Source of the DNA: Chiloscyllium plagiosum
Taxonomy: Eukaryota
Length of the DNA: 32,240 nt
NCBI RefSeq assembly: GCF_004010195.1
Contig: NC_057752.1
Location: 14,934,203 to 14,966,442, forward strand
Direction: 5' to 3'
Shown here: in pieces, positions 6,580-24,975 of the stretch
Numbering within the stretch: position 1 is the first letter of the stretch
Layout: each line of letters opens with the position of its first letter
Program-made: the position numbers and the translations under genes
The notes under the pieces: generated by a model
The model's input: only the letters and a program-made list of their open reading frames with translations
Database searches by the model: none
Told to the model about the DNA's origin: nothing

Positions 6580-7187
6580 CTCCAGAGAAGAAATGTCTCC
6601 TTAGCTCCATTGTAAATGGAAGACACCTTATTTTGAAACTTCCCACCAAATTCTCAATTTTCTCACAGGCCTCTACACTGGCAAGCTCTCGGAATCTTAC
6701 ATGTCACAATAAGATCACCTCTCATTCCTGTAAAGTATAGTATGTGAATAAAGGCCCAATTTGTGCAGCAAATGCTGAGATTGCTGGAAAGGTTCAGCAG
6801 ATCTGGCAGCATCTGTGGAGAGAAATCAGAGTTAGGGTTTTGGGTCAAGTGACCCTTCCTCAGAACCTGAAACATTAACTCTAATTTATCTCCACAGATA
6901 CTGCTAGATGTTTTCAGCAACTTCTGTTTTTGTTTCTGATTTACAGCATCTGCAGTTCTTTTGGTTTTTATTTCCAATTTGTGCAACCTTTACTGAAAAT
7001 ATAACATCATCATAAATTGCCTATTAGTTCTTTTGTTCTCAAGTAAGGGGACCAAAAATATTTAGAGTACTTTTGTCTGATCAGTGACTTTGCTTTTGCA
7101 GAAAATTTCCCTGTTGGTGTACTCTACCTCCTCACAATAAAGGCCAACATTTCATTTGCCTTCCTAATTATTTGGTGTATCTGCATA
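6580..7187 (-). mobile_element. Older CR1 3'-half fragment (host of the PLE mini-element 6768-6973)
   Basis: QIHQIIRKANEMLAFIVRR and MRGDLIVTCKI on the minus strand. Confidence 0.6.
6768..6973. mobile_element. PLE-derived foldback mini-element (family C) with 12-bp TSD and a degenerate hammerhead
   Basis: TSD ccaatttgtgca at 6756-6767 and 6974-6985; inverted arms gcagcatctgtggagagaaatcagagtta / taactctaatttatctccacagatactgc; minus-strand CTGAGGA-A-GGGTC(ACTT)GACCC-AAAAC at 6836-6863. Confidence 0.75.
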
Positions 7188-7920
7188 GCCAACATCCTGA
7201 AATCACTTTTTATATCCTCGATCCTTTTCCTGGCTATATCATTAGTGCCAATATGTAACAAGATTTCTGGCTGTTCGTCCTCCCCTTTTAGAACCTTATA
7301 CACCCAATCGGAGACATCCTGGACCCTGGCACCAGGGAGGCAACATACCTTCCGGGAATCCCGATCCTGACCACAAAATCTCCTGTCGATTCCCCTAACT
7401 ATCGAGTCCCCTACCACGAGTACTTTTCTATTCTGCCCGCTTCCCTTCTTTGCCACAGTGTCAGGCTCAGTGCCAGAGAACTGACTGCTATGGCTTTCCT
7501 CTGGTAGGTCATCCCCCCAGCAGTATCCAAAATGGTATACTTATTGATGAGGGTAATGTCCACAGGGGAACTCTGCACTGTCTGACTGTCCCCTTTCCTC
7601 CCCCTAACTATAACCCATCTATCCTTGTCCTGAGCCTTAGGAGTGACCAACTCCCGGTAACTCCTCTCAATTACCCCCTCAGCCTCCCGAATGATCCGTA
7701 GTTCATCCAGCTCTAGCTCCAATTCCCTAACACGGTTTTCAAGGAGCCGGAGTTGGGTGCACTTCCCGCAGATGTAGCCAGCGGAGACATGTGCCATGTC
7801 TCCCACCTGCCACATTCTGCAGGAGGAGCAAGCAACTGCCCTGCATCCATATCCGACTTATCTGAACACCCACTCAGTACTAAAGTAGAAAGCTTAGTTC
7901 AAGTTGCTATAAAATTAATA

Positions 7921-8090
7921 ACAGGAGAAAGTGAGGACTGCAGATGCTGGAGATCAGAGCTGAGAATGTGTTGCTGGAAAAGCGCAGCAGGTCAGGCAGC
8001 ATTCCTGAAGAAGGGCTTATGCCCGAAACGCCGATTCTCCTGTTCCTTGGATGCTGCCTGACCTGCGCTTTTCCAGCAACACATTCTCAG
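7921..8090. mobile_element. 170-bp Neptune-type PLE foldback mini-element (family B) with 12-bp TSD
   Basis: TSD ataaaattaata at 7909-7920 and 8091-8102; ~40-bp inverted repeat 7959-8002 / 8051-8090; same terminal sequence as the RT-bearing PLEs at 19770-22131 and 23884-24975. Confidence 0.88.
8002..8035 (+). ncRNA. Hammerhead ribozyme motif (family B), cleavage triplet mutated to GCC
   Basis: CTGAAGA-A-GGGC(TTAT)GCCC-GAAA-CG-CC-GA; sister copies have GTC or GTT. Confidence 0.65.
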
Positions 8091-9129
8091 ATAAAATTAA
8101 TAGCAAACTTATATTCAATAGAGTAAGTTTAGAATGAACCTTACCTTATTAACCAGGTTAGAGGAGGAGGGCGGGTGGGAGACACTACAGTTGTACAGTC
8201 TCTGGTTTAGCCGCCTTTCTGATATATGTGGTCACTGCTTTCCTTCCCGGCTGCCTCTCTGGTCCTTGTCACTTCCTCCGCTGTTTTATCATCTCAATTT
8301 AATGCATGCACATATCCCCAGTGCTGCACTGATGTGTTAGCTGAAATTGGACACTTGGGGCCCTGGGGTGCAGTTCAAAACCCAGGAGGGTTTCCCAGTT
8401 TGGCCTGAGTACCACATTTCATTTCTAGTGTGGTAGTGGCAAAAACATCATGCAACCCTTCACTTATTAAATCAGAGTCGAAATTTTCAAGTTTTGAATT
8501 TCATTGAATCATGGGTTAATCTTCTGAATGCTGTGATCAAATGCACTTGAAGGATCAGGATGACCCTACTGGGGGCAGATACCATTTCACTGATAGAGTT
8601 GTGATCTCTATTATCATAGAGTTTCTGTATGCAGAACCACCAACAATAAATTTAACCTTTCAATTGGATTCTTTACTTTAAATTTAGCACAAAAATGTTC
8701 CAACCTGGAACCTTTTTAACTTGAATTATAGAGGTGTAAAATTAACAGAACAGCTTCCCAGACCAGCTGTTTCCCTGCACAAGTGGCTCTCATTACACGT
8801 AGAACTGCGTCAAACCTGGTACATGGTTCTCTTATAATATGTTGTGTAGTTTCATTTAGTTGCAGTGTTATGGAGGCATTAAAACAAATAATTCTAAAAT
8901 TATAAGCTTCAATGTGTGGAAACTGTGCAACTTATCAGTAATTATATACAGCCAAGTGTTAGCCCATTGGCCTCACCAGAAAAACGATTTCAGTGGGGTC
9001 TGTTTCCCATAGTGATGAGAAAGATTCCTGTTATGGGATGAAGCAACTAGTTGTTTGCAGACTGTTACTTTGAAAGAGTTAATTATTTCCTTTGTATTAA
9101 ATCATACTTTCATCTGGGCCAGCCAGTCT

Positions 9130-9390: not shown

Positions 9391-10034
9391 TAATTCTTTG
9401 TTGTGATGAATTGGAATTTGTGTCCGCTCATGATAGTCTTGCTAATCATTTGAGGAAATCTCACAATTAATTTTAATGTAAAGTTTCAGAATCTGTCTTG
9501 GCAAAAACTGCAGCTCCTTGGATCTGCCTTTTTAACGGTTGCTCCTCATTTCTTCCTTTTAGTCCAGTTTAATTTTGTTGTCCACTGGACCACTCCTTAC
9601 TGACTGCCATCACGTTCACTACTGCCTTTTGTATTTTATCCTATGTTCTTTCCCCTTTCTGTTTGTGACCAGTAATCCTTGCTGAACTTTTGCTGACTTG
9701 TTCTTCCTATATTGCAACACTGCTTCCTTGAATCCTCATGGTTGAAATCAAGATTCATTGATACACTGTCTATGCAGACTCTTTTCGTAGTCTTAGAACT
9801 GTGGTCCCTGCCCAAACTTTGTATCTAGGAGTAATTTAATTGATTTCACCTTCTGTCTCTTTTTTTTTTAGTCGGGACGGGGTCCTGTGTTGTGGGGCTT
9901 GGGTTCCCAACTTAAGAAAAACACCCTTGTTTGTTGAGTATACCTGTTGAAAGAGCATATATTTTGCAAAGATTAGCCTTGGGTTTGTGCCAGTGGGAAC
10001 AAAGGTGCAAACAAATGATCACTGTATTTCAGAC

Positions 10035-10190
10035 AAAAAAACCCAAAAGTACTGTGGATGCTGGAAATTTGAAACAAAAAGAGAAATTGCTGGAAAATCT
10101 CAGCAGGCCTGGCAGCATTAGTGAAGAGAAATAGGGTCCAGTGACCTTTCTTCAGAACTGATTGTAGCTAGGAAAAGAATATTTTCAAAA
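10035..10190 (-). mobile_element. PLE family C terminal repeat; the element apparently resumes at about 11449-11555 after a HER1 insertion
   Basis: Reverse complement of the 6890-6973 arm (gatgctggaaatttgaaacaaaaagagaaattgctggaaaatctcagcagg); truncated hammerhead CTGAAGA-A-AGGTC(ACTG)GACCC on the minus strand at 10134-10155. Confidence 0.6.
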
Positions 10191-11448: not shown

Positions 11449-11724
11449 GGGTGGGGGAAGTGTAAGTGTAGGTGGAAAAAGGGCCCAAAGAGAGAGAAAA
11501 ACAGTTGGACAGACAAAGGAATGGTTCACGGTCACTCTGGAGGAATGAATAGCTGTGCATTTTGGCAAATACCTTGTTAAACACCAGGAGTGATAGCGAA
11601 ATTAATGACAATGAATAAGGAAAAGCAAAAAAGATTGGAACTGAAATCCTGTCGGAGAGAAGAGCAGAACTACTTCAAGGTGGCCATACCAGGAAGCGAT
11701 GTGGCAATGGGTTAAACACTGAGA

Positions 11725-11791
11725 TAAAACACCAAAAGAGCAGTGGATGCTGGAAATCTGGAACAAAAACAGAAATTGCTGGAAAATCTCC
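11725..11791 (-). repeat. PLE family C terminal fragment
   Basis: gtggatgctggaaatctggaacaaaaacagaaattgctggaaaatctc, matching 10050-10101. Confidence 0.6.
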
Positions 11792-12349
11792 TGGCTAAGA
11801 AGTTGCCAGTTGAGTCTGTGGTTCATAGTTATGTTCCCAGTACAAAACTCAAGGGTTGCCACTGTAAAAGCCAACCTAAGAAAGTCAGTAAAGCTGAATA
11901 ACTGCTTAAAAAGAACAAAATCCTTCAAGTTAATTGGCTAAACAATTGCTAACTCAAAGCTAATCTTACTTACAAGCTTGTGATCAGGGCCATGCTTTAT
12001 ATTAAGTGAACAAGCAAAATGCTGTTTTAATTTCATGCAATTGGAGGATTTTTAGTGATTTGTGGAATGTGGTTCCAGTTTGAATTACCTTGCTATGAGA
12101 ATTCTCTCAGCATTGGCTATGATGTGAGAACAAATGGTCACTTTGAGAATGTAAGTGTGCCATGACTGGTTACAACTTCAGATGAATAAATCTACTACTT
12201 GTTGGGGAAAGATATACAAACAAAATACTTTATTATCTAGTCACTGATCTAGAAAGCAACGAAGAGTTATGAGTACCGAAAACATGCAGTTTCACTTCGA
12301 GGAACACAATACCATCACCCCCACCCTTTCATTCAGGAATCATTATTTT

Positions 12350-12439
12350 TAACAAAAACAGAAATTGTTAGATAAACACAGCAGGTCTAGCAACATCTAT
12401 GGTGAGAAAGAAGAGGTATCATTTTGAGTCCAATGACTC
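12350..12439 (-). repeat. Diverged PLE family C-like terminal fragment
   Basis: aacaaaaacagaaattgttagataaacacagcaggtctagcaacatctatgg...gagtccaatgactc (remnant of the stem II hairpin). Confidence 0.5.
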
Positions 12440-12588
12440 GACAGTTGTTTTGTTTGTTTTTTTTAATGAGTTAAGGGTATCAATGGATGTGGATCAAAGG
12501 GGGAGAAGTGGAGTTGAGGCAGGGATGGAAATCATGGACTCCAGTGGTATTCTCAGCACCTGACTCATGCACAGTGGGCCCCAGAGTC

Positions 12589-14122
12589 AAAACCCTACGC
12601 AGAGTCAACCCACGTAAGGCTGCTAGACCAGATAACATCCCTGACAGAGTGCTCAAAGGATGCTCTTACGTACTGGTGGATGTTCTCCTAGACATCTTCA
12701 ACATCTCCCTGAGCTGCACCATAGTTCTAACGTGCTTCAAGGCCGCTACCGTTGTCCCCGTGCCGAAGAAGTCTTCAGTGTCCTGTCTCAACGACTACCG
12801 CCCCATTGCGCTAACACCCATCATCATGAAGTGTTTTGAGAGGCTTGTGATGAGGCATATTAAGACCCTGCAGTTCACATCTCGTCCAAACCGCTCAACA
12901 GATGATGCCATTTCCAACACCCTCAAGCTGGCCCTCACCCACCTGGAGAAGAAGGACCCCCATGTCAGACTACTGTTCATAGACTTCAGTTCTGCATTTA
13001 ACACTGTCATTCCTCAGCACCTGGTTGGAAAGCTGAGTCTGCTGGGCCCAAATACCACCCTTTGTAACTGGATCCTGGACTTCCTGACTGGGAGACCTGT
13101 TAGTCTGGATTGGGATCAGCATCTCCAACACCATCACACTGAGCACGGGGGCCCCCAGGGCTGTGTGCTCAGTACACTGCTGTTCACCCTGCTGAGACAC
13201 AACTGTGCAGCAATGCACAGGTTGAATCACATCATCAAGTTCGCTGATAATATGACTGTAGTGGGTCTCATCAGCACGACCAATGAGTCAGCATATAGAG
13301 AGGAGCTGCAACTGCTAACAGACTGGTGCAGAGCCATCTGAATGTGGACAAGATGAAAGAGATGGTTGTTGACTTCAGGAGCGACCATTCTCCACTGGGC
13401 ATTGGCTTTCCTGTGGAGATGGTGAACAGCACGAAATCTTTTGGCGTCCACCTGGCAGAGAATCTCACCTGGACCGTCAACACCAGCTCCATAGCCAAGA
13501 AATCCCAGCAATATCTGTACTTTCTGCACAGGCTGAGGAACGCCCACATTCCCCCCCCCCACCACTTCCCAACCTCTCTGCATCTTACAGAGGGTTTATT
13601 GAGAGTGCCCTGAGCTGCTGCATCACTGCCTGGTTCAGGAATTGCCCTACAACGGATAGTAAGGGCAGCTGAGAGGATCAATGGGGTCTCTCTTCCCACC
13701 ATTACAGGCATTTACTCCACACATTTCATCCGAAAGGCTAACAGCATTGTAGAAGACCCCACACATCCCTCACTGAAAGTCTTCTCCCTCCTGCTGTCTG
13801 GCAGAAGATACTGGAGCATTCGATCTCTCACGGCCAGACTGTGCAACAGTTTCTTCCCCCAAGCCATCGGGCTGCTTAATACTGTATGATCAGACTCTTT
13901 TTCCATCTGGAACTCTTTGCACGACTTTGAATTGCTGCTAGAAAAATGTCTATTGTTTATCGTTTTTCTACTGTACTGTAACTTGCGTGTTTTGCACTTC
14001 TTATGCAGTGTACGGTTGTGTAGTTAATGCCGTCCATGTAGCACCCTCGGTCCTGGAGGAAGGCTGTCTCATTTTTAATCTATCAGTTGTATACGGTAAA
14101 AATGACAAATAAAAAAGCTACT
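12589..14122 (+). mobile_element. Rex1/Babar non-LTR retrotransposon, 5'-truncated RT and 3' UTR
   Basis: [70 protein letters not shown]; 3' end gacaaataaaaaagctact; candidate TSD cagagtc at 12582-12588 and 14123-14129. Confidence 0.9.
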
Positions 14123-19550: not shown

Positions 19551-19828
19551 TTCAGTTTGAGCAAGGTAATTTGTAAGAAGTGAGGAATTGCCATAATCTA
19601 AGGTTTACTACTTATGCCATGTCGATTCAGTTATTCATAGCATCATAGAATCCCGATAGTGTGGATGCACACTATTTGGCCCATCAGTTACATACCACCC
19701 TCTGAACAGCATCTCAGACACACCCACCCTATCCCTGTAATCCTGAATTTCTCATGGCTAATCCACTGAGCCAAGAGTGTGCTGCTGGAAAAGCACAGCC
19801 GGTCAGGCAGCATCTGAGGAGCAGGAGA

Positions 19829-19862
19829 ATCAACGTTTCGAGCATAAGCCCTTCATCAGGAA
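19829..19862 (-). ncRNA. Minimal hammerhead ribozyme motif (family B), GUU triplet
   Basis: TTC-CTGATGA-A-GGGC(TTAT)GCTC-GAAA-CG-TT-GA. Confidence 0.75.
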
Positions 19863-22004
19863 TGAGGCTTGTGGGCCAAGGGGGGGGGGGGGGGAGAAGG
19901 GAGCTGAACGTAGGGGTGAAGGTGATAGGTCGGAGAGGAGGGTGGAGTGACTAGATGGGAAGAAAGATGGTCAGGTAGAACAGATCAAGAGGGTGGTGCC
20001 GAGTTGGAAGGCTGGATCTGGGATCAGGTGGGGGGAGGGGAAATGAGGAAACTGGGTGAAATCCACATTGACCCTGCGTGGTTGAAGTGTCCCAAGACGG
20101 AAGATGAGGCGTTCTTCCTCCAGGTGTCGGGTGGTTAGTGATTGTCGATGGAGGAGGCCCAGGACCTGCAGGTCCTAGGGGGAGTGAGAGACTGTGTTAA
20201 AGTGTTCACCTACAGGACGGTGGGGTTGTTCCATGTGTGTGTCCTGGAGATGTTCTCTGAAACATTCCGCAAGTAGGTATCCTTTCTCCCCAGTGGAGAG
20301 GAGACCGCATTGGGAGCAACAGATACAATAAATGGCATGTGTGGAAGTACAGGTAAATCTCTGGACGTGGAAGGAGCCTTTGGGGCTTTGCTTGGAGGTG
20401 AGGGGCATTTTGCAATTCTTGCGGTGGCGGGGGGGGGGAGGTGGTTGGGGAGGGCAGGTGTGGGTCTGACAAGGGAGTCCTGGAGGGATTGGTCTTTACG
20501 GAACACAGATAAGGGTGGGGACGGAAATATATCCCTGGTGGTGGGGTCTGTTTGTAGATGGCAGAAATGGCGGAGGATCATGCAATGTATCTGGAGTTTG
20601 GTGAGGTGGAAGGTGAGGACCAAGGGGGTTCTGTCCTTGTTGCGGTTGGAGGGATGCGGTTCAAGGGCGGAGGTGCGGGAAGTAGAGGAGATGTAGTTAA
20701 AGATGCCCTCCAGCACGTGGGAGGGAAAATTATGGTCTTTGTAGAAGGAGGCCATCTTGTATGTTCTGAGATAGAATTGGTCCTTCTGGGAGCAGATGCG
20801 GCAGAGATGGTGGAATTTGGAATAAGGGATAGCATTTTTACAGGAGACAGGATGGGAGGAGGTGTAATCCAGGAAGCTGTGGGAGCTGGTGGCTTTGTAG
20901 TGGATATCCATGCTGAGTCGATCACTGTTAATGGAGATGGGGAGGTCCAGGAAGGGGAGAGAGGTGCCCGCGATGGTCCAGGTGAATTTGAGGTCAGGGT
21001 GGAAGGTAACGGTGAAGTTGATGAACTGTTCAATCTCCCCGTGGAAACACAAGGTTGCGCCAATATAGTCCTTGATGTAGCAGAGGAAAAGGTGGGGAAT
21101 GCTGCCGGTGTAACTGTGGACCTTTATGGAATGCAGATTGGGGTGTGGAGGGAAATTTATCCCTGGTGGTCAGATCTGTTTGTAGGTGGTCGAAATGTCT
21201 GAGGACGATGCAATGTAGATCGGGGTGGGGAGGGAAATACCCAGTGTCACCCACATCATTCCCCACCTTTCCTCTGTTACATCGATGGCTGTATTGCCGC
21301 ACCTCGTGCTCCCACGAGGAGATTCAACAGTTCATCAACTTCACCCCAACCTTAAGTTCCTGGACCATCATGCACACCTCCCTGTCTTTCCTGGACCTCT
21401 CCATCTTCATTAACGTTGACGGACTCAACACGGACATCCACTACAAACCCACCGACTCCCACAGCTACCTGGACTAAACTTGCTCGCAACCTGCCTCCTG
21501 TAAAAACGCTATCCCTTATTCCCAATTCCTCTGTTGCATCTGCTCCCAGGAGGACCAATTCCACCATAGAACACACCAGATGGGCGCCTTCTTCAAAGAC
21601 TGCAATTTCCCCTCCCATGTGGTCGATGATGCATCTCATCCACTTCCCACACATCTGCAACCGCAACAAGGACAAAACCCCCTGGTCCTCACCTTCCACC
21701 CCATTGCCTAACCCTTACCACCCGATGTCTGGAGGAAGAACGTCTCATTTTCTGCCTTGGGACCCTCCAACCACATGGAATCAACGTAGTTTTTGCCAGT
21801 TTCCTCATTTCCCCTACCCCCATTTTATCCAAGATCCAACCTTCCAACTCGGCATTGTTCTCTTGATCTGTCCTATCTGTCAATCTTCCATCTCACCTAT
21901 CCGCCCCACCTTTCTCTCCGACCTATCACCTTCTCCCCCACCTTCATTTACCTATCGTATTCTTCCCCTACCCCCCCCCTTATCTCTCAGCCTCACAAGC
22001 CTCA

Positions 22005-22038
22005 CTCCTGATGAAGAGCTTATGCTCGAAACGTCGAT
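22005..22038 (+). ncRNA. Minimal hammerhead ribozyme motif (family B), intact GUC triplet, sense to SPRYD3
   Basis: CTC-CTGATGA-A-GAGC(TTAT)GCTC-GAAA-CG-TC-GA. Confidence 0.8.
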
Positions 22039-22781
22039 TCTCCTGCCCTTCAGATGCTGCCTGACTGCTTGTGCTTTTCCAGCAGCACTCTCTCGACTCT
22101 GATCTCCAGCATCTGCAATCCTCACTTGCTCCTAATCCACTGAACCTGCACATCCCTGGACACTATGGGCAATTTAGCATGGTCAATCCACCTAACTTGC
22201 ACATCTTTGAACTGTGGGTGGAATCCGGAGCACCCATAGGAAATCCATACAGACACTGAAAAGTGCAAACTCCACACAGATATTGACCTGAGGATGGAAT
22301 CGAACCCGGGTTCCTGGCACTGTGAGGTCGCAGTGCTAACCACTGAGCTAACTGTTAACCTCATGAAATCTCCTCCAGAAGATTCCTGTGGATCTCATCC
22401 CAGGGCAGTGATAGGGGCAATACAGTTCGGCTGAGTTCCTCCAAACTAAGTAGTACATTCAACCTGGGTTCCTACTCACCTAACACTGTGCAAGAACCAA
22501 CCACTGGAAAGTGTGAATGCAGAGCAAGGGCAAGATCATGTCGATTATAATCTAGACTCACCTGTGAAAAATGGCCACTTCACTCAAAAAGAGGAGAACC
22601 TGTGGAACTGTAATCCAGAAGAGAAAGGGTTCTTGAAAGGGACATTATGAAAGCTTCCTATTTGAGGCTCTGCATTTTATCAAAGTTGCAAATAAATGGA
22701 ACCGGAACAATTGTGTTTAAATTTGCTGATTTTGTATCCTCAGTCAATTTTCCACTTTCTTCTTTCTTGGTTTGTCTCCAG

Positions 22782-22931
22782 CTATTAGAATATAGCGGCA
22801 AAGGGAAGAGTATCATGGATGTTGGACTCGCACAAGCAAGATATCCCCTCAGCACCAGAAGCCATTACTTTGAAGTAGAGATCGTTGACCCAGGTGAAAA
22901 ATGCTACATTGCCTTGGGACTGGCAAGAAAG
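22782..22931 (+). CDS. SPRYD3: Internal coding exon of SPRY domain-containing protein 3 (150 nt, 50 aa: LLEYSGKGKSIMDVGLAQARYPLSTRSHYFEVEIVDPGEKCYIALGLARK)
   Basis: Polypyrimidine tract and CAG acceptor (ttcttctttcttggtttgtctccAG, AG at 22780-22781); AAG|GTttgt donor at 22932. The peptide closely matches my recollection of vertebrate SPRYD3 (LLEYLGKGKSIVDVGLAQARHPLSTRSHYFEVEIVDPGEKCYIALGLARK) and carries the SPRY HYFEVEI motif. Confidence 0.93.
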
Positions 22932-23883
22932 GTTTGTGGTACAAAATGTATTTTTCTTCTACTTTGTTAAATATTTATGCTAATTGAGGTTAGACGATGT
23001 CACTGCTCGTCAACGGAAGAGCCAGTGTCAACACCGAGTATGGTCCAGATTCCATCCTTTATTCTGCCCCATGAATATGCTTTAACTGAAACCTCAAAAA
23101 AGTAGCACAAGAACATTGGGGTAAATATCTTCCATTTTGTACACCAGCTGTATTCATTGCCTTTCTGAGTACTGTTGCAAATTTAGCACAAAAGCATATT
23201 CTAAACTAATCTGAGACATATGACTGATGTCCAATTTGACAATTCTGCTTGATAAAAGCGAAAGGTAATGAAAGTCTTGTGACACTAGATTTTTGATGTT
23301 TTACTCCCAGCCACTTCAAAGATCTGAGAGTCTCTTAGTAGTTTTTACTGAAAGAGAAACCTAGCTCTGCAGTGAAGACTAGTGCTGTACTCTATAAGAT
23401 AACAAGCCTGCAGTTAGCGCAGGTTAAATATTTGCTAGTCAGCTTAAAATGCTGAATTCACCTGTTGCTGTTCCAATTAGTACATTTTTAACAGCACATA
23501 ATGTTTAATCTGCGAAAAGTCCTTTGTGCTCAGCATATCACCTAGTTCTTGTGTGCTTGTATTGCTAAAGAGGGTTGGACTTGTATGCCTACTATTTGCC
23601 TCAGGCTTTGCCATGAGGGAAGTGATGGTCATATGTCTGATGGTGTATGTCTGAATCACCTTCCAATTCATGACCCAACTTCTGTCTTCAGGCATAAAAA
23701 CATCCTGTTGCAGGTATACAGTTGTAAGATAGTTAATGCTGGGCTTAGAGATTTTGGGTCTCTTACGAAGTCAAAGGATATGGAGAGGAAGCAGGAAAGT
23801 GGAGTTGAAGCTGAACATCAGCCATGAACATACTGCATGGCTTTCCATTGAAAGTGCCATATTGTTGGCTATTTTCTTCATTT

Positions 23884-24975
23884 GAGGAGAAAGTGAGGAC
23901 TGCAGATGCTGGAGATCAGAGCTGAAAATGTGTTGCTGGAAAAGCGCAGNNNNNNNNNNNNNNNNNNNNNNNNNNNNNNNNNNNNNNNNNNNNNNNNNNN
24001 NNNNNNNNNNNNNNNNNNNNNNNNNNNNNNNNNNNNNNNNNNNNNNNNNNNNNNNNNNNNNNNNNNNNNNNNNNNNNNNNNNNNNNNNNNNNNNNNNNNN
24101 NNNNNNNNNNNNNNNNNNNNNNNNNNNNNNNNNNNNNNNNNNNNNNNNNNNNNNNNNNNNNNNNNNNNNNNNNNNNNNNNNNNNNNNNNNNNNNNNNNNN
24201 NNNNNNNNNNNNNNNNNNNNNNNNNNNNNNNNNNNNNNNNNNNNNNNNNNNNNNNNNNNNNNNNNNNNNNNNNNNNNNNNNNNNNNNNNNNNNNNNNNNN
24301 NNNNNNNNNNNNNNNNNNNNNNNNNNNNNNNNNNNNNNNNNNNNNNNNNNNNNNNNNNNNNNNNNNNNNNNNNNNNNNNNNNNNNNNNNNNNNNNNNNNN
24401 NNNNNNNNNNNNNNNNNNNNNNNNCGAGGGAGTCACGGAGGGAGTGGTCTTTTCGGAACGCTGATAGGGGAGGGGAGGGAAATATATCCTTGGTGGTGGG
24501 GTCCGTTTGGAGGTGGCGGAAATGACGGCGGATGATACGATGTACATGGAGATTGCTGAAAATGTGTTGCTGGAACAGCGCTGCAGGTCAGGCAGCATCC
24601 AGGGAACAGGAGAATCGACGTTTCGGGCATAAGCCCTTCTTCAGGTTGGTGGGGTGGTAGGTGAGGACCAGTGGGGTTGTGTCCTGGTAGCGATTGAAGG
24701 GGTGGGGCTCAAGGGCAGAGGAGCGGGAAGTGGAGGAGATGCGGTGGAGGGCATCGTCGATCACGTCTGGGGGGAAATTGCGGTCTTTGAAGAAGGAGGC
24801 CATCTGGGTTGTATGGTATTGGAACTGGTCCTCCTGGGAGCAGATGCGGCGGAGACGAAGGAATTGGGAATATGGGATGGCGTTTTTCCAGAGGGCAGGG
24901 TGGGAGGAGGTGTAGTCCAGGTAGCTGTGGGAGTCGGTCGGTTTATAGTAAATGTCCGTGTTGATTCGGTCGCCC
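23884..24975 (-). mobile_element. Neptune-type PLE (RT C-terminus to pLTR), spans an N-gap
   Basis: TDIYYKPTDSHSYLDYTSSHPALWKNAIPYSQFLRLRRICS..PLVLTYHP; the terminus at 23884-23949 matches 7924-7990. Confidence 0.88.
24613..24644 (-). ncRNA. Minimal hammerhead ribozyme motif (family B), GUC triplet
   Basis: CTGAAGA-A-GGGC(TTAT)GCCC-GAAA-CG-TC-GATT. Confidence 0.75.

Follow-up and report, generated by a model that had tools for sequence, protein, structure and literature searches.

Introduction

Several kinds of mobile element leave inverted or hairpin-forming copies in genomes. Twin priming of L1 produces an inverted segment that is joined at microhomology inside one TSD, the segments coming from different parts of one RNA. 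MITEs carry terminal inverted repeats that reach both ends, and their numerous copies are uniform, with one internal junction in common. Where a hammerhead ribozyme is part of an element, its triplet follows the NUH rule.

Penelope-like elements (PLEs) are the closest described system to the locus reported here. As far as the accessible portions of the published accounts go, EN+ PLE insertions show an inverted, 5′-truncated 3′ terminal repeat (pLTR), an optional tail of 30–40 bp on one end and a TSD (PMC3846280; Craig et al. 2021, PMC8557442). According to the available text of a study with purified protein, the PLE protein cuts and extends both strands at AT-rich sites, two start sites bound the tail, and ribozyme cleavage is not required (PMC11167929). 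The minimal hammerheads (min-HHRs) of PLEs were described, in the part of the work at hand, mostly as single dispersed motifs from truncated elements, with opposite-strand pairs already noted, and no cleavage was seen for a single minimal hammerhead (Cervera and De la Pena 2014, PMC4209133). A search whose reach left aside most subscription papers and Repbase found no publication on Penelope inverted repeats of the bamboo shark; titles and abstract beginnings yielded no paper on twin priming in the PLE mechanism, and the literature on shark Penelope hammerheads yielded nothing beyond a review.

Here we analysed a short foldback with a hammerhead motif in its loop, located in a stretch of 32,240 nucleotides from Chiloscyllium plagiosum (NC_057752.1, positions 14,934,203 to 14,966,442), which is termed the window; all positions are those of the window. 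The results make it highly likely that the foldback is an ordinary truncated and inverted PLE insertion.

Results

Structure and extent of the foldback

We found that 7960–8002 (43 nt) pairs with 8051–8090 (40 nt), and apart from three additional letters on the left side the two arms are exact reverse complements. The foldback consists of 40 paired bases, one 3-nt bulge and a 48-nt loop (8003–8050), and the loop is made up of 2 nt, the hammerhead core at 8005–8032 and then 18 nt. Folding of the strand 7921–8090 gave −89.9 kcal/mol with a z-score of −8.65, and none of 200 shuffles was equally stable. The preliminary description had begun the left arm at 7959; the pairing that it reported is real, and the start is moved to 7960, since the G at 7959 is unpaired with the A at 8091. 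The features are collected in Table 1.

Table 1. Positions of the foldback, its target site and the related structures in the window
Feature	Position	Strand	Details
Host CR1/L2-type LINE ORF1 pieces, including esterase domain	7124–7857	−	ORFs; PDB 4C1B match
Left TSD	7909–7922		14 nt, AT-rich target; 15 if the A at 7923, common to the element end, is counted
PLE tail	7923–7959	−	37 nt, this arm only; 37/37 identical to 23885–23921, 35/37 to 22097–22133
5′-truncated pLTR continuing from the tail, left arm	7960–8002	−	Aligns to 19768–19875, 21990–22133 and 24556–24645
Inversion junction	8000–8002		CAT fits both arms (3-nt microhomology); hammerhead preceded by CAT in copy 19855–19890
Tail-less pLTR from the hammerhead front edge	8003–8090	+	Right arm 8051–8090
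Minimal type I hammerhead core	8005–8032	+	CUGAAGA, extra A, 4-bp helix II, GAAA, loopless helix III
Right TSD	8091–8104		One substitution, G at 8103; LINE contigs resume at 8104–8105
204-bp foldback, older PLE-type family	6770–6973		14-nt TSD, one mismatch
Head-to-head PLE of about 2.36 kb, related family	19773–22133		Tail-less arm minus, tailed arm plus

The target site was examined in the window and in four public runs that were aligned to 7781–8230 at 90% likeness, namely the contigs of X3, X15 and X9 and the raw RNA reads of X21, with X3, X15 and X21 coming from organism A and X9 from organism B. An exact 12-nt repeat (7909–7920 and 8091–8102) is present inside a 15-nt match with one mismatch (7909–7923 and 8091–8105), and the chance of at least 14 of 15 letters matching at one fixed register is about 8 × 10−7. 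An empty site was found in run X3, in which contig record 10 covers 7810–7921 and then continues directly at 8104, and further LINE contigs end at 7921–7923 or begin at 8104–8105. Because the insert-free LINE contigs break at these positions, the TSD is read as 14–15 bp, with one later substitution in the right copy. These contigs are about 91–99% identical and, as judged from this identity, appear for the most part to be insert-free paralogues of the LINE. In addition, 7923 was the commonest family end among those listed, and hence the unit is taken to be 168 bp (7923–8090). A unit of 170 bp with a perfect 12-bp TSD, as proposed earlier, was thus rejected: the foldback, the hammerhead in its loop and the exact 12-nt repeat all stand, and the lengths of 168 bp and 14–15 bp, the latter with one mismatch, fit better and agree with the empty sites. 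That the unit is a single insertion was supported: one TSD bounds both halves, and an empty-site contig exists.

The target lies approximately 50–65 nt upstream of the LINE ORF1 frame at 7411–7857 (minus strand). The next LINE frame matches the ORF1 esterase (PDB 4C1B, E = 5.7 × 10−11), and the ORF1 N-terminal frame gave no match in Pfam, where 3 of the 7 window proteins were matched. HER1, the LINE in which the preliminary description placed the insertion, is the partner of the shark and ray SINE HE1 according to the accessible text of PMC3747384. In the stretches 7797–7855 and 8150–8200 we also observed an inverted 15-nt match between 7797–7811 and 8170–8184, and the depth of aligned contigs peaks at 7811–7840 and 8156–8185. 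The 5′ region of the LINE seems to have short motifs in common with a more abundant repeat.

Both halves correspond to the terminal repeat of one PLE family

Alignment within the window indicated that both halves are the PLE pLTR of one family, joined head to head. On the minus strand, 8002–7923 represents the last 80 nt of the pLTR, the final 37 nt of which (the tail) are absent from the plus-strand half. The latter, 8003–8090, is 92% identical over 90 nt to 24556–24645, with an identical 3′ end and starts at most 1 nt apart. It is without 3 nt (CTG) behind 8062, and the aligned sequence of the public runs has an insertion row at 8062. Copies of the pLTR were located in the window at 19768–19875, 21990–22133, 23885–23949 and 24556–24645. 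Furthermore, a minority letter is common to both arms (7964 G and 8086 C; at most 9–15% of the aligned sequence at 7964), which points to one donor.

A pLTR that is 80–86% identical to the unit ends the PLE body at 19773–21170. As atlas leads, the frames of this body pointed to PF26215 clusters (0.95) and a GIY-YIG cluster (0.96), PF01541 GIY-YIG being present on 18% of the members of the top cluster, and the two decayed PLE frames of the window body had no match in Pfam. The RT and GIY-YIG domain calls are leads that are backed by gene order. The RT-EN linker of the window PLE is frameshifted and decayed, and from its degraded Cys linker motif we take the element to be possibly of the Neptune type. 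Each hallmark of PLE insertions that was examined was found at the locus, namely the pLTR of an element with RT and GIY-YIG, an inverted 5′-truncated copy, a tail on one end and an AT-rich TSD.

Family ends and junctions in public runs

Across the four runs there were 270 joint rows, 15 of them listed (one being the empty site), and about 136,600 pieces, 24 of them listed. Copies with exactly the present junction would align without a joint and are outside the joint-row count, and the X3 counts are partial because of depth. The results revealed that loose ends gather before 7922–7924, mostly at 7923 (644, 897, 556 and 167 records in the four runs), where the flanks are AT-rich, and that loose ends also gather behind 7959 in all four runs. 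Among the 14 listed joints other than the empty site, 11 link nine different left ends (7946–7967) to 8000–8005, and for 5 of the 11 the left end falls within the tail (7946–7954), so that the left piece is tail only. A short insert of 2–4 letters lies between the two pieces in 4 of the 11, and 6 carry the entry 'between: not known'. The pile-up at 8000–8005 is partly forced, because the reference has no native sequence upstream of 8000. Past 8002, the left-arm sequence continues as normal pLTR in 213 reads of X21, 106 contigs of X9 and 33 contigs of X15.

The present junction was repeated at none of the five other well-matching pLTR loci in the window, and a 26-nt family pattern had no match in metagenome_contigs or in viral_contigs. 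Six of the 14 listed joints were found in the runs of both organisms, and several recur across contigs; these common joints may be old common insertions, recurrences through microhomology or true subfamilies. In a very large family, a near-fixed end together with a 3-nt microhomology can make identical junctions recur independently, and therefore common junctions count only if they come with private mutations and different flanks. Junctions that differ between copies had been named beforehand as the outcome that would speak against a self-propagating family, and the varied junctions fit that outcome among the listed joints, which leave the exact-junction copies outside the count.

The hammerhead core of this copy

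The conserved CUGAAGA was read at 8005–8011, and the core has CGCC where a minimal hammerhead has CGUC. Helix I of 8005–8032 has just 2 bp, a mismatch and 1 bp more. U16.1 is replaced by C at 8031, so that the triplet at 8030–8032 is GCC, as had been noted before, and an intact NUH triplet is absent. In the family, T stands at 8031 (GTC), with values for the four runs of 98.6%, 98.0%, 708 of 756 reads and 99.6%, and the min-HHR core (CUGANGA, helix II and GAAA, with a palindromic minimal helix III) is present. Because U16.1 is lost and helix I is weak, the ribozyme of this copy is, by its letters, very probably inactive. The same had been suspected earlier; in support, the C at U16.1 stands against T in 94–99.6% of the family, and a single minimal hammerhead was left uncleaved in published work (Cervera and De la Pena 2014).

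A search of the whole window against Rfam, with E up to 1, gave no match to a hammerhead model. A match to mir-2007 (31.5 bits, compared with a gathering value of 100) was rejected as a generic hairpin. Blocking of the hammerhead fold by the long hairpin was also considered and set aside: forcing helices I and II costs 2.8 kcal/mol here and 2.6–4.2 kcal/mol in two copies that are not foldbacks. We likewise rejected the cut site between 8032 and 8033 as a preferred 5′ end, since only 1 of the 14 listed joints falls nearby (8034, with 18 letters between) and no pile-up of ends was reported. Among the poly(A) single-cell reads of X21, 2208 were aligned, 2190 of them partly, and no pile-up of starts or ends was seen in this type of library, which would miss small circles. 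There is also an inverted 10-nt match between 7920–7929 and 8035–8044, by which the last letters of the tail resemble the sequence just past the cut site; it may be due to chance.

Other PLE structures in the window

Two further TSD-flanked foldbacks were found (Table 1). The one at 6770–6973 (6756–6987 with its flanks) has the same plan as 7923–8090 in mirror orientation; its shorter-ended arm begins 3 nt before a decayed hammerhead core, and its other arm is about 45 nt longer at the end. The one at 19773–22133 (19758–22146 with its flanks) contains RT-thumb and GIY-YIG-like coding remnants, its flanks match over 15 nt with one mismatch, giving a TSD of 13–15 nt, and its arms are only about 78% identical. 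Both have junctions unlike that of 7923–8090, and both consist of one shorter-ended and one longer-ended arm.

In addition, a 90-bp tail-less pLTR that starts from the hammerhead is present at 24556–24645 (minus strand) inside a PLE RT body, with the 3-nt TTG on both flanks. The two sides of this RT body are contiguous in another copy, and an assembly gap is situated at 23950–24424; either solo insertion or template switching could have produced the piece. The older PLE-type family has left further decayed ends on the minus strand, at 10030–10165, 11720–11795 and 12340–12450. An RT remnant of another LINE type (RVT_1, E = 2.2 × 10−20) occupies 12475–13711 amid many CR1-type fragments. An open frame at 22614–22970 (plus strand), which had no Pfam match, resembles a host exon in its second half (about 22800–22930), where there is presumably a SPRY-like motif. 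This suggests that the window lies within introns of a host gene.

Discussion

Our preferred reading is that the foldback arose by one very short EN+ PLE insertion in AT-rich DNA upstream of the LINE ORF1, and we consider this account, including the mechanism outlined here, to be well founded and probable. A minimal PLE insertion with 5′ inversion was one of the two origins offered by the preliminary description, and it is supported by the pLTR matches in the window, the 37-nt tail on one arm and the varied junctions. The GIY-YIG endonuclease would place a nick in each strand, with about 14 nt between the nicks, and reverse transcription would be primed from each of the 3′ ends. The top-strand cDNA would begin at the distal start site, at the end of the tail, and halt after 80 nt; the bottom-strand cDNA would begin at the proximal start site, which lies 37 nt inward of the distal one, and extend for about 90 nt until it reaches the hammerhead's front edge. 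The ends of the cDNAs could then anneal via CAT/ATG, with subsequent fill-in, and the hairpin would be a by-product that is remade at each such insertion. For the step with two cDNAs we lean towards its being correct; a demonstration of it for any PLE was not found in the accessible portions of the PLE mechanism literature. The front edge of the hammerhead, a preferred stop distinct from the ribozyme cut site, may correspond to the 5′ end of the RNA, and a stop at this edge recurs at 24645 and 6866. The two halves derive from nearly one and the same stretch, which would require two templates, a tandem RNA or the repeated use of one RNA.

The inversion could also have been produced, within a PLE insertion, by snap-back self-priming of one cDNA or by an antisense template, which we regard as unlikely. 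Such a route has a precedent, in that palindromes at head-to-head junctions are explained by self-priming on an antisense template in the accessible text of Arkhipova et al. 2013 (PMC3846280), and both the 3-nt microhomology and the common minority letter fit one arm having been copied from the other. However, the junction here is without a long palindrome, and the loop runs on into the tail-less arm, yet it is the other arm that has the 37 tail letters. A tail-less arm cannot template a tail and the left piece is tail only in five listed joints, which makes a simple snap-back less likely; an antisense RNA that extends into the tail could have served as the template instead. The window is dense in PLE stubs, and microhomology-mediated deletions are known in PLE copies from the available text of PMC3846280, so that two independent stubs, or a longer insertion that has collapsed by such a deletion, might be imagined instead. 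With one TSD around both halves and arms that are identical but for 3 nt, we give this origin almost no credence, and many other joints land at the start of the tail-less arm, a position that random later deletion would not favour.

The other origin offered at the outset was an independently amplifying unit. According to this explanation, the 168-bp foldback would be a non-autonomous unit whose hairpin RNA, with the hammerhead in its loop, is transcribed and then re-inserted by the PLE protein, giving a retrozyme-like or MITE-like family with one junction. The clean TSD and the retention of the tail, the region in which reverse transcription of PLEs begins, would suit such a unit; some listed joints occur in several contigs, with summed depths of up to 450 and in both organisms, and non-autonomous PLE derivatives do exist, as stated in the accessible parts of PMC8557442 and bioRxiv 10.64898/2026.07.22.740005. 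Against it, the junction recurs at none of the five related pLTR loci of the window while the runs contain many different junctions, and C at 8031 makes up at most 0.4–6% of the aligned sequence, which caps any family descended from this copy. Retrozymes would show a head-to-tail tandem of at least two units, each with a complete hammerhead, whereas we found no tandem array and no canonical hammerhead but one motif between head-to-head arms. Nor do the inverted repeats reach both ends as in a MITE, because the 37-nt tail is unpaired and lies outside the arms, and one terminus is thereby missed. A self-amplifying retrozyme or MITE-like unit is thus disfavoured by a structure that is monomeric, minimal and head to head with its tail outside the paired arms, and we rate it as very improbable. 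A broader form of the idea, in which some foldback stubs act as masters whose hairpin RNA is re-inserted whole, forming a monomeric head-to-head ribozyme class distinct from the tandem retrozymes, has in our estimate an equally slim chance; if it were true, the recurring joints in the runs would be such families.

The locus itself is of little weight, being a dead stub in a LINE and of a kind described for PLEs. Its value lies in giving a clean footprint of how the inverted repeats and tails of PLEs form. On opposite strands of the target, the starts of the two arms are separated by exactly one tail length, as the in vitro work of 2024 predicts if two cDNAs meet, and the tail-less arm halts at the hammerhead front edge, not at the cut site.

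When the preferred PLE insertion is set beside the described systems, it resembles L1 twin priming in being inverted, joined by microhomology and enclosed by one TSD, but here both segments copy almost the same stretch. The EN+ PLE insertions, in the accessible portions of PMC3846280 and PMC8557442, have in common with it the head-to-head pLTRs, a tail on one end, here of 37 nt, and a single TSD. The present copy differs in being 168 bp long without an ORF, in its TSD of 14–15 bp compared with 8–10 bp in rotifers, and in a junction of 3-nt microhomology in place of a palindrome of 18–38 bp. With the min-HHRs of metazoan PLEs, as presented in the part of PMC4209133 at hand, it has in common the type I core with an extra nucleotide before helix II, and the family likewise has a loopless palindromic helix III; helix II is 4 bp here as against 7–8 bp in the Schistosoma families, helix I is weak and U16.1 is lost, and that part names no sharks. 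The in vitro products of Poseidon PAc of Anolis (Frangieh et al. 2024, PMC11167929) are similar in their AT-rich target with ATT, in two ends that are one tail apart and in the lack of an end pile-up at the ribozyme cut site; formation of the inverted junction is not covered in the available text of that study. The non-LTR retrozymes (Cervera and De la Pena 2020, PMC7229834; Li et al. 2026) are also short, non-coding and PLE-derived with a type I hammerhead, but in the accessible parts of these sources (PMC7229834; bioRxiv 10.64898/2026.07.22.740005) their units are arranged head to tail in tandem, each unit has a hammerhead and circular RNAs are formed, whereas the present locus is monomeric and head to head with one mutated minimal motif. 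The kind of structure is therefore already known: the foldback is an ordinary product of PLEs and not a new mobile RNA.
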